Shown here piece by piece: positions 34,367 through 36,165 of a stretch of DNA of 64,000 bases (position 1 is its first letter; every line of letters begins with the position of its first letter). The position numbers and the translations under genes were made by a program. This stretch comes from Escherichia phage vB_EcoM-G28: sequence record NC_054916.1; one strand, written 5' to 3'. The notes beneath the pieces were generated by a model, which saw nothing but the letters and a program-made list of their open reading frames with translations, made no database searches and was not told the origin of the DNA.

Positions 34367-34385
<19 letters not shown>

Positions 34386-34855
34386 TCAGTGATAAAGTTA
34401 TTTAAATTTTGAGTATATTTCTTTTCATCAAAAATCTTTTGTTGTCTGCGTAAACGCCATGGCATTTCAATGAACATACGCCATATTCCTGATAATACTG
34501 CTGCTGTAAAAATATTAACAAGTATAGTTAAAAGAACCCAATCTCCTATTCTGTCCATTGGATTTTTTATAAAAAAGTAAAATACGAACGATGATATAGG
34601 AAGACTAATGATATACCACAGAAGAACCTTCTTATCTGTGAACCAATCAGCATTCGTTAACTTAGCGCGACCGTTTTGAATACATACGAACTTATCATCT
34701 GTTACAGTAAATGGCTTAGCTGCTTGATATCCCATTCTAAACTCCCTAATCAACAAATTTTTCATATCTTCGGAACAACCATTCCAGTCAACTCTATCAA
34801 CTGAAATGCCATCATCCCCATCATCTAAATCATACCAGCGAGTTTTTAAAATCAT
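34367..34855 (-). CDS. Membrane protein (162 aa), two predicted TM helices
   Basis: Hydrophobic core; C-terminal [11 protein letters not shown]. Confidence 0.55.
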
Positions 34856-35214
34856 TTAATTTTCCTACAATCACTCACAAACTCTTTCATTGATTCATTT
34901 TCAATATAAGACATGTAGCTATTATATTCTTTTAATTGTATTTTGTAATCCTTTTTTCTTTGCCAATTTATTTTAAAATTATCATAATAAAAATATAACA
35001 TGGTACCAAAGAATGAAAATAATGAAATAATTTTAGTATAGTGAAGTTCACTCCAAACTTCTATTATATTTACTGTGCCGTCGATGTTTAAAATAATACA
35101 GTCAATTAACAATCCAAAAAGACTACCCGCAAGAGCTGCAGCCAACGCCACAGCAAAAATTAAAAATGACTCAGGAAGCGAATATTTGACTTTATTTAGT
35201 TTTGGCTTTTGCAT
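34852..35214 (-). CDS. Membrane protein (120 aa)
   Basis: Hydrophobic core; C-terminal KEFVSDCRKIK. Confidence 0.55.
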   Translation of the reverse strand: MQKPKLNKVKYSLPESFLIFAVALAAALAGSLFGLLIDCIILNIDGTVNIIEVWSELHYTKIISLFSFFGTMLYFYYDNFKINWQRKKDYKIQLKEYNSYMSYIENESMKEFVSDCRKIK

Positions 35215-35588
35215 CGTGATTCCTTAACAAATTTCATAATTTCATCAAATTCATGCGCAGCAAGTTTAAGCTGATGTTCCTTTTTAATCTTTTTACACTG
35301 AGCTTTCCAATCACATACACGTTTACGATAGTGTCTTCCTTGATACCAGTATCCTATCCAATTTATAGGTACTAATAAAAGCGGAACTACCAATGGAAGA
35401 ATTAGTGTTGCTCCAAATATTGCACCAGATTCAATATCAGTCATAACGTCTATAACTATTCCAGCAATCAGCAGAATCACAAATGATACGGCTACCACAG
35501 GACCTATTAACACATCAGTAGAAATTATCTGACGCTTTAGTTCATACTTCAAAGGTTTACTTGGAAGGTATAGTGATGGCTTTGACAT
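35196..35588 (-). CDS. Membrane protein (about 130 aa)
   Basis: Hydrophobic core; C-terminal MKFVKESRCKSQN. Confidence 0.55.
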   Translation of the reverse strand: MSKPSLYLPSKPLKYELKRQIISTDVLIGPVVAVSFVILLIAGIVIDVMTDIESGAIFGATLILPLVVPLLLVPINWIGYWYQGRHYRKRVCDWKAQCKKIKKEHQLKLAAHEFDEIMKFVKESRCKSQN

Positions 35589-36165
35589 ATTCTCTACATT
35601 CCTTAACAAATTTTTCTAGTAATAAATCGCTTTCAAAACTAGGATTTTCCACGAATTTATCAAAAAGATCATCAACAATATTCAAGATATTCCTTTTACT
35701 AAGAATACGTTTATTTTCATGCTTCGTTTCAGAATCAACTATAAGAGTAAAGAAATATTTCTTTCCCTGAAATTTTACCGTAGTATCAATATAAAATAAA
35801 TTTGACTTTTGTAAGTTACGTTTAAACCATGCGTCACTTAAACTATAAACACCGAGATAATCAAAATCGTCGTTTAAATAACAAACTGTCCATTCAGGAG
35901 AAATGAAATCAGTAAATTCAACATCAAAATCACACGTCAGTGAATGAATTGATTCAATACTGTTAATAAGTATTCCAGGACGTATTAAAGACTTTTTACC
36001 TCTAGAAAATCTTCCAGAAAGACTTTCATCAGTTTCATATGAAGAACCCCAATAATAATTACGTCCTTCTGCCATACGTTTAAGAGCATTTAGTAATTGG
36101 TCTGGAACATCAACTTGTCTTTGGAACTCTTCAAACATTGAATTGAAATCATTTTGCATTCTCAT
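35557..36165 (-). CDS. Hypothetical protein (202 aa)
   Basis: ORF in track; C-terminal EKFVKECREYVKAI. Confidence 0.55.
   Translation of the reverse strand: MRMQNDFNSMFEEFQRQVDVPDQLLNALKRMAEGRNYYWGSSYETDESLSGRFSRGKKSLIRPGILINSIESIHSLTCDFDVEFTDFISPEWTVCYLNDDFDYLGVYSLSDAWFKRNLQKSNLFYIDTTVKFQGKKYFFTLIVDSETKHENKRILSKRNILNIVDDLFDKFVENPSFESDLLLEKFVKECREYVKAITIPSK

Follow-up and report, generated by a model that had tools for sequence, protein, structure and literature searches.

Gene layout of the e.2-e.5 array

The DNA analysed here is a 64,000-nucleotide stretch of Escherichia phage vB_EcoM-G28 (NC_054916.1; hereafter the window), a Tequatrovirus, in which a row of four minus-strand open reading frames (ORFs) lies between nudE on one side and e.6 and the tRNA genes on the other. 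ORF calls and the match to T4 identify the four as e.5, e.4, e.3 and e.2, and confirm the tandem arrangement, lengths, C-termini and position that an earlier reading of the letters alone (the sequence-only reading) had given for them. The 1.8-kb stretch with e.2-e.5 matches 503 phage records at 90-97% identity, and an old GenBank record calls these genes msp4-msp7. All coordinates below refer to the minus strand of the window unless another record is named. Gene e.5 (35557-36165) encodes a soluble protein of 202 amino acids (aa) with the C-terminus EKFVKECREYVKAITIPSK (phrog_2607), and e.4 (35196-35588) encodes 130 aa from its ATG, with two predicted transmembrane (TM) segments and the C-terminus MKFVKESRCKSQN (phrog_2604). 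Gene e.3 (34852-35214) specifies a membrane protein of 120 aa that ends KEFVSDCRKIK (phrog_2330, plus phrog_2604 at E 0.005), while the 162 aa of e.2 (34367-34855; phrog_2203) comprise an N-terminal domain of about 75 aa, two TM segments and a tail. The neighbouring e.6 (36207-36800) encodes a conserved helical-hairpin protein of 197 aa. Packing is tight throughout: e.5 and e.4 overlap by 32 nt and e.4 and e.3 by 19 nt, with ATGA stop/start overlaps at e.3/e.2 and e.2/nudE. Promoters and terminators scanned for in the e.2-e.5 array did not rise above background level.

The four proteins end in closely related tails, whose core reads FVKECR in e.5 (35593-35610), FVKESR in e.4 (35214-35231), FVSDCR in e.3 (34864-34881) and FITECR in e.2 (34379-34396). 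The common F-[IV]-x-[ED]-[CS]-R tail had been pointed out in the sequence-only reading, and tails of this kind proved to extend well beyond these genes, to about 20 families. In a six-frame translation of the 64 kb, F[IV].[ED][CS]R gives five matches against 0.39 expected from composition, four of which are the tails of e.2-e.5, 3-11 residues before the stop. The stricter pattern [FW][IVL]..C[RK] occurs three times in the 26,148 ORF residues of the window, each time as the tail of e.2, e.3 or e.5. When the whole of T4 was scanned with [FWY][IVL]..C[RK], six matches were obtained in 803 ORFs, and the motif stood as a tail only in e.2, e.3 and e.5; the remaining strict matches were an internal site in gp41, an internal site in 30.3, and thymidine kinase, where it lies near the C-terminus in a different sequence context.

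The motif pattern was chosen post hoc, and the real test is its independent replication outside the window. When 909 window ORFs were scored with a hidden Markov model (HMM) built only from tails of other genera, e.5 took rank 1, e.2 rank 2 and e.3 rank 4. Moreover, the tail is the best or among the best conserved nine-residue windows inside each family: in e.5 its conservation is 0.53 compared to 0.26 for the rest of the protein (rank 1 of 194 windows), and in e.2 it ranks 6 of 154. Chance is effectively excluded as the source of the tail similarity.

Conservation of the tail at the amino-acid level

Every tail overlaps the ribosome-binding site of the next gene. In e.5 and e.4 the K-E codons contain AAGGA, in e.3 and e.2 the R-K codons contain AGGAAA, ATGA serves as overlapping stop/start, and a run of 16 nt is identical between e.5 and e.4 (AAATTTGTTAAGGAAT). 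Dual coding was therefore a serious rival, in which the similarity of the tails would be imposed on the DNA or RNA, either by the Shine-Dalgarno (SD) sequence and start of the following gene through translational coupling, or by recombination linkers resembling promoter-early stem-loop (PeSL) elements. Shuffling of the PeSL type is documented for T4-like phages (PMC2839356, PMC4122927), and a natural e.4::e.2 deletion chimera is known. The codons of 149 distinct tails speak against such an origin. The Cys codons are evenly divided (TGT 55, TGC 55), all six Arg codons from both codon families occur (AGA 49, CGT 38, AGG 22, CGC 15, CGA 11, CGG 4), and Phe (TTT 94, TTC 38) and Ile (ATT 69, ATC 21, ATA 11) likewise use every synonym. 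In addition, the SD sequence falls on different motif positions, with the F codon 17, 22, 26 and 26 nt from the next start, and the junction of the chimera lies within its first TM segment (TM1) and not in the tail. Since all synonymous codons are in use and the SD sequence sits on differing motif positions, we conclude that the tail is conserved by selection at the amino-acid level; ribosome binding, translational coupling and recombination linkers were rejected on the codon usage of the 149 tails, and an origin at the nucleotide level is very improbable.

The chimera itself was found in phage vB_EcoM-UFV09 (locus L004, 4004-4324), where the N-terminus of e.4 is naturally fused in frame to the C-terminus of e.2. 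Lost in this deletion are the remainder of e.4, the whole of e.3 and the N-terminal domain of e.2. Its junction coincides with a short microhomology (TCCTGTG / TCCTATA), and the design of two helices plus tail is kept.

Among the 149 tails, F is conserved in 132, C in 110 and R in 139, with acidic residues dominating before the motif and basic ones after it. The Glu present in most tails of the window is not conserved across genera (55/149). The Cys position is occupied by V, I, M or S in 39 of the 149 tails, including the whole e.4 family, and since Cys can be replaced in this way, the position seems to need a small hydrophobic side chain and not a reactive thiol. The spacing i, i+3, i+4, i+7 would place a hydrophobic stripe on one face of a short amphipathic alpha-helix. 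In e.5, an AlphaFold2 (AF2) model of low confidence (predicted local distance difference test, pLDDT, 58.5) has a helix at residues 181-196 (LLLEKFVKECREYVKA; 35578-35625) following a loop at 174-180. A C-terminal degron of the ClpX type and a lipidation signal were both set aside, as the distance of the motif from the end varies (0-30 residues) and V, I, M or S can stand in for its Cys.

In the e.4 family Cys never stands at the tail Cys position, which holds S, I, V or M. About 25 residues ahead of its terminal motif, this family conserves another element, [ED]-W-x-x-[QKE]-C (here DWKAQCKKIK, 35283-35309, aa 94-102), on which hhalign places the e.2 tail. This inner element could have arisen as an earlier tail copy that has since degenerated, and the lack of Cys in the terminal motif of e.4 would then be accounted for.

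Kinship, topology and expression of the four proteins

Pairwise BLASTP of e.2-e.5 gave weak local matches only (E 0.003-1.1), and profiles were therefore needed. With hhalign, e.3 and e.4 align over their full length (114 columns, P 95.2%, E 2.7e-8), e.2 and e.3 over a 21-residue tail only (E 1.5e-5), and e.5 aligns to e.2, e.3 and e.4 over 10-13 tail residues (e.5 residues 183-195). In an all-against-all profile network of the tail-bearing families, e.2 is linked full-length to tm70 (E 1.8e-8), tm85, tm45 and tm69, and e.2, e.3 and e.4 each match a further family, tm108, at 84-89%. When the tail was removed, e.3 and e.4 still matched (E 1.7e-4), e.2 and e.4 did so marginally (1e-3), and the body similarity of e.2 and e.3 was gone; profiles reversed on one side, which served as null for these comparisons, reached 2.8e-3 at best. 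Control membrane families without the tail gave E values of at least 0.009 and twelve other T4 envelope proteins of at least 0.007. These profile comparisons show e.3 and e.4 to be full-length paralogs within a fast-diverging superfamily of two-helix inner-membrane proteins. Given the absent body similarity to e.3 and a match to e.4 close to the null, e.2 is concluded to be a more distant member of the same superfamily through the intermediate families and its architecture. In contrast, e.5 stands outside it, since the 10-13 tail residues alone align and it has no TM segment by hydropathy; the tail is its sole shared part. Of the paralogous array proposed in the sequence-only reading, the membrane proteins thus stand, e.2 by way of intermediates, while e.5 does not belong to it.

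Hydropathy places the TM segments of e.2 at aa 78-96 and 106-124 and those of e.4 at aa 32-50 and 61-79, the latter with net charges of +3 / -2 / +8. In e.3, one strong segment (aa 19-37) is accompanied by a weaker one at about 62-77, which is hydrophobic and aromatic but remains under the Kyte-Doolittle threshold of 1.6. Two TM helices in each of three membrane proteins, as had been expected, are therefore predicted clearly for e.2 and e.4, and for e.3 with one strong helix and a weaker second. The charge bias predicts that both termini of e.2, e.3 and e.4 are cytoplasmic (N-in/C-in), which would put the tails in the cytoplasm. Searches with the single e.5 sequence against PDB sequences returned empty, and the Foldseek matches of the e.5 model to RelP and small alarmone synthetases (E 0.03, TM-score 0.16) were dismissed as not meaningful.

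Time-resolved omics of T4 assign early RNA to e.2-e.6, and class the proteins as early (e.4 and e.5), middle (e.2 and e.6) or late (e.3) (PMC9697503, supplementary files 4 and 6). The ORFs are thus made as protein, at least in T4, where the products of e.2-e.6 have been detected (PMC9697503 supplement). Gene e.2 is intact in the window with its 162 aa, unlike in reference T4 (locus L001; 67473-67960 in record coordinates), where it is split by a frameshift in TM1 into an annotated product of 102 aa and a remnant ORF of 36 aa that still encodes the tail.

Tail-bearing families across Straboviridae

The wider comparison covered 34 IMG/VR loci fetched with e.6 as anchor, plus further GenBank phage loci. 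The strict motif was found near the C-terminus in 130 of 1115 called genes, with at most five strict matches per fetched locus, and in the e.6-anchored loci every gene carrying it lies downstream of e.6. Together the tail-bearing genes form about 20 families at BLAST level in Straboviridae, with the consensus hydrophobic-x-x-F-[IV]-x-x-C-[RK] near the C-terminus. The majority are two-helix membrane proteins; the soluble ones comprise e.5, a second e.5-like family, three families of 90-160 aa, and a Jiaodavirus protein of 102 aa encoded between nudE and e. Gene content is variable, each genus having its own set of tail-bearing genes, and e.2 is missing from its usual place in some relatives. 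The tail is retained across genera while the bodies drop to 30-50% identity or beyond recognition. A comparison of T4-like genomes had been proposed to see whether the tail is conserved while the bodies vary, and this is the pattern obtained; with the high-ranking conservation windows and the predicted topology, the notion of a conserved cytoplasmic tail on divergent bodies held up.

Searches by other routes were narrower. Word-indexed homologue searches with e.4 and e.5 retrieved close relatives only, and an exhaustive phmmer search of 1.84 billion representatives showed the e.5 family to be narrow, with six matches, one of them spurious. Our own Pfam and NCBIfam scans of e.2-e.6 gave nothing useful. 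PHROGs 2203, 2330, 2604 and 2607 and, among precomputed hits, the recent Pfam accessions PF26873, PF26876 and PF26896 hold e.2-e.5 as separate families of unknown function; these models treat the four genes as unrelated, and do not capture the tail, the e.3/e.4/e.2 superfamily or the link to e.6. In the literature searched, we found no description of the shared tail, the two-TM superfamily or a resemblance between e.6 and Vipp1, and nothing specific on e.2-e.6 or on a phage PspA.

The conserved neighbour e.6

Gene e.6 is present in 1105 phage records and is 54-99% identical across the loci retrieved with the e.6 query, which makes it much more conserved than the tail-bearing genes. The gene directly downstream of e.6 bears the tail in 37 of 40 loci, and the three exceptions are frameshifted copies of e.5. 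The pairing of e.6 with a tail-bearing gene is also kept in RB43, Aes012, EBPL, POP12, ZPAH1 and AS-szw, where the neighbourhoods are different and e.6 identity is 31-59%. In RB43, EBPL and POP12, proteins of 205-316 aa next to e.6 carry KFIHSCKK or SFIHQCKV, and the corresponding tail in Aes012 is MFVDYCRR; ZPAH1 has a row of three soluble tail-bearing genes, and AS-szw has two with F-[IV]-x-Y-C.

Frameshifted or truncated e.5 was observed in three phage genomes that are otherwise intact (L007, 3880-4474; L009, 6636-7251; L035, 6656-6895), which suggests that e.5 is dispensable in at least some hosts.

An AF2 model of e.6, built from 31 homologues (pLDDT 74.6), predicts a helix at the N-terminus and a long helical hairpin (residues 25-80 and 86-145), with three short helices in addition. 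The model thus has the features of an ESCRT-III-type fold, namely an N-terminal helix, a long alpha1-alpha2/3 hairpin and shorter C-terminal helices. When it was searched with Foldseek against the PDB, the top eight matches were all Vipp1 (probability 1.00, E 3e-3 to 1e-2, TM-score 0.42-0.51, near full length), followed by archaeal CdvB2 and more Vipp1 chains. An hmmsearch of the e.6 profile against PDB sequences gave six matches, three of which are Vipp1, collinear over residues 4-142 at E 1-2.4, while the single e.6 sequence found nothing in PDB sequences. None of the 31 e.6 members matched PspA_IM30 or Snf7 in Pfam at E <= 10, and comparison with a small Vipp1/PspA profile gave a hhalign E of 0.012, no better than that of the reversed control (0.0082). 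Homology of e.6 to PspA by sequence was rejected on this last result. The predicted fold resemblance to Vipp1 is specific enough to serve as a lead, while the sequence-level support is not significant and e.6 is at most a putative member of the family.

A proposed docking model and its alternatives

Taken together, we propose that the tail of e.2-e.5 may be an amphipathic cytoplasmic docking helix by which a varying assortment of early proteins is tethered to a single shared partner, with e.6 as the best candidate for it; we put the probability of this reading at roughly 0.45. The constant adjacency of e.6 and a tail-bearing gene is the main reason for proposing e.6. In this model, anchoring a PspA-like protein at the membrane or recruiting it there would fall to the two-helix proteins, as it does to LiaI or PspB/C, and the soluble proteins of the e.5 type might be adaptors or regulators at the host inner membrane early in infection, with membrane protection, counter-defence or exclusion as candidate outcomes. 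Whereas the reality of the motif, its selection as protein sequence and the kinship of the membrane members are direct results of the comparisons above, we infer the docking, the partnership with e.6 and the physiological role. The partnership is read from gene order, and most of the loci that display this order were collected through e.6 itself.

The tails might instead bind each other, forming a homo- or hetero-oligomerisation helix that holds one complex together with no separate partner. Tail-bearing genes are indeed usually clustered (four in the window), and a small hydrophobic Cys, Val or Ile at +4 would fit well where two helices pack tightly against each other. In the examined stretches of RB43, EBPL, POP12 and Aes012, however, a single tail-bearing gene stands beside e.6, and hetero-assembly is therefore not required; moreover, a stable bundle would be expected to have more than four hydrophobic positions, and the constant position beside e.6 would be left unexplained. 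Mutual binding of the tails is for these reasons unlikely. That the tail is an in-plane amphipathic helix, pinning soluble proteins such as e.5, as well as the membrane proteins by their C-termini, to the surface of the inner membrane, would agree with its C-terminal position, its amphipathic character, the basic residues that follow, and its occurrence on soluble and membrane proteins of one locus. The C-terminal membrane-targeting helices of MinD and FtsA provide the comparison, and against this standard the F, C and R of the tail are conserved far beyond what lipid binding needs. Acidic residues are also common at -4, -2, -1 and +3, and in RB43, EBPL and POP12 as many as 30 residues separate the motif from the end, all of which makes a lipid-binding helix a rather unlikely account.

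The tail could also be the slowest-evolving remnant of common ancestry, kept for the folding or stability of each protein and with no shared external function. Inheritance does account for part of the sharing, e.2, e.3 and e.4 being paralogs. The soluble families (e.5, sol32/43/68 and sol101), on the other hand, share nothing but the tail with the membrane families (10-18 aligned columns), so that on this account unrelated folds would all depend on one motif, or the motif would have moved between them by shuffling, and we regard this explanation as quite improbable.

The docking model, with e.6 as the candidate partner of the tails, can be carried one step further. T4-like phages may have a membrane-remodelling or repair module of their own, in which a Vipp1/PspA-like e.6 would be recruited or regulated at the inner membrane by polymorphic F-I-x-x-C-R anchors and adaptors; we consider this doubtful. 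With the same reserve, such a module might be the phage's own version of the bacterial phage-shock system, its interchangeable partners being adapted to different hosts or defences. Membrane remodelling, which the sequence-only reading had named as well, gains indirect support only, from the constant proximity of e.6 and the closest match of its predicted fold being Vipp1. If e.6 does turn out to be of the Vipp1/PspA type, no such system would have been described before from a virulent phage, as far as the literature was searched, and the finding would matter for understanding how the host membrane is kept functional in a T4 infection. The region between e and the tRNA genes of T4 is a long-standing block of genes without assigned function, and about 20 Straboviridae families from it and its equivalents can now be grouped by one selected motif and tied to one conserved neighbour, e.6.

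Other features of the region

Mosigvirus and several further genera have, at the corresponding place, a second array of genes sharing a tail, which is absent from the window. It consists of three to five tandem genes for small acidic soluble proteins that end in G-W-[VI]-[SA]-S-S-x-x-C directly before the stop, with the variants FWFNSSMSC and WYPSSC (L003, 4357-5151; L006, 5691-6752; L013, 7700-8494; also L014, L019, L023, L027, L032 and L040).

Between the e.6 stop and the ribosome-binding site of e.5, the coding strand of the window carries a GC-rich hairpin, which has a UUCG loop and lacks a T-run (GGGGCUUCGGCCCC; 36186-36201). A putative stem-loop is annotated at the equivalent place in the T4 record L13089.

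Many NCBI records name e.4 a 'sulfurtransferase' (homologues P0005, P0013, P0029 and others, as well as several GenBank phage records), although it is a two-TM protein of 130 aa without a rhodanese domain, and e.6 is often labelled 'host specificity protein' in databases. Both names look like propagated misannotations.

Comparison with known systems

The sequence-only reading had likened the array to superinfection-exclusion factors. As small early phage proteins at the cell envelope, e.2-e.4 do resemble T4 Imm, Sp, rI, rIII and holin t, which are likewise dispensable in the laboratory. The likeness does not extend to homology with Imm or Sp (hhalign E 0.007-0.47). In the comparison with T4 Imm, Sp, rI, rIII, holin, spanins and Ac, hhalign gave E values of at least 0.007; for Imm, Sp, rI, rIII and holin t, P was at most 5.6%, and the whole-T4 motif scan found the tail in none of these five.

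A closer parallel in T4 is the capsid targeting sequence (CTS) of the internal proteins IPI, IPII and IPIII, an N-terminal MKTYQEFIxE that is cleaved by gp21. Like the tail, the CTS is a terminal amphipathic peptide of about ten residues on unrelated, fast-evolving proteins of the same variable region, and its hydrophobic-x-x-F-I-x-E core is similar. Two ORFs resembling internal proteins flank the region in the window (32836-33309 and 37774-38067), with the starts MKTYQEFITEA and MKSYAQFLNEA. Unlike the tail, however, the CTS is N-terminal, sits on late virion proteins and is cleaved after Glu, whereas the tail stands at the C-terminus of early proteins, most of them membrane proteins, and has C-R after its core. 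A relationship between the two was rejected, considering the C-terminal position, the presence of Glu in only 55 of 149 tails, and the failure of the tail HMM to detect the N-termini of the internal proteins in the window.

In bacteria, the PspA-PspB/PspC system of E. coli and the LiaH-LiaI system of B. subtilis offer the same layout as e.6 and its neighbours, as the gene for a helical-hairpin protein adjoins those of small membrane proteins whose C-terminal segments are cytoplasmic. The PspA homologue LiaH is anchored to the membrane by LiaI (PMC9239133). A Pfam scan of e.2-e.4 detected no similarity to any family, PspB, PspC and LiaI included. In contrast to the Psp and Lia proteins, the putative tail-bearing partners are numerous and polymorphic and include soluble proteins. 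The principle behind the tail-bearing set thus has precedents, both in the CTS of T4 and in the Psp and Lia systems.

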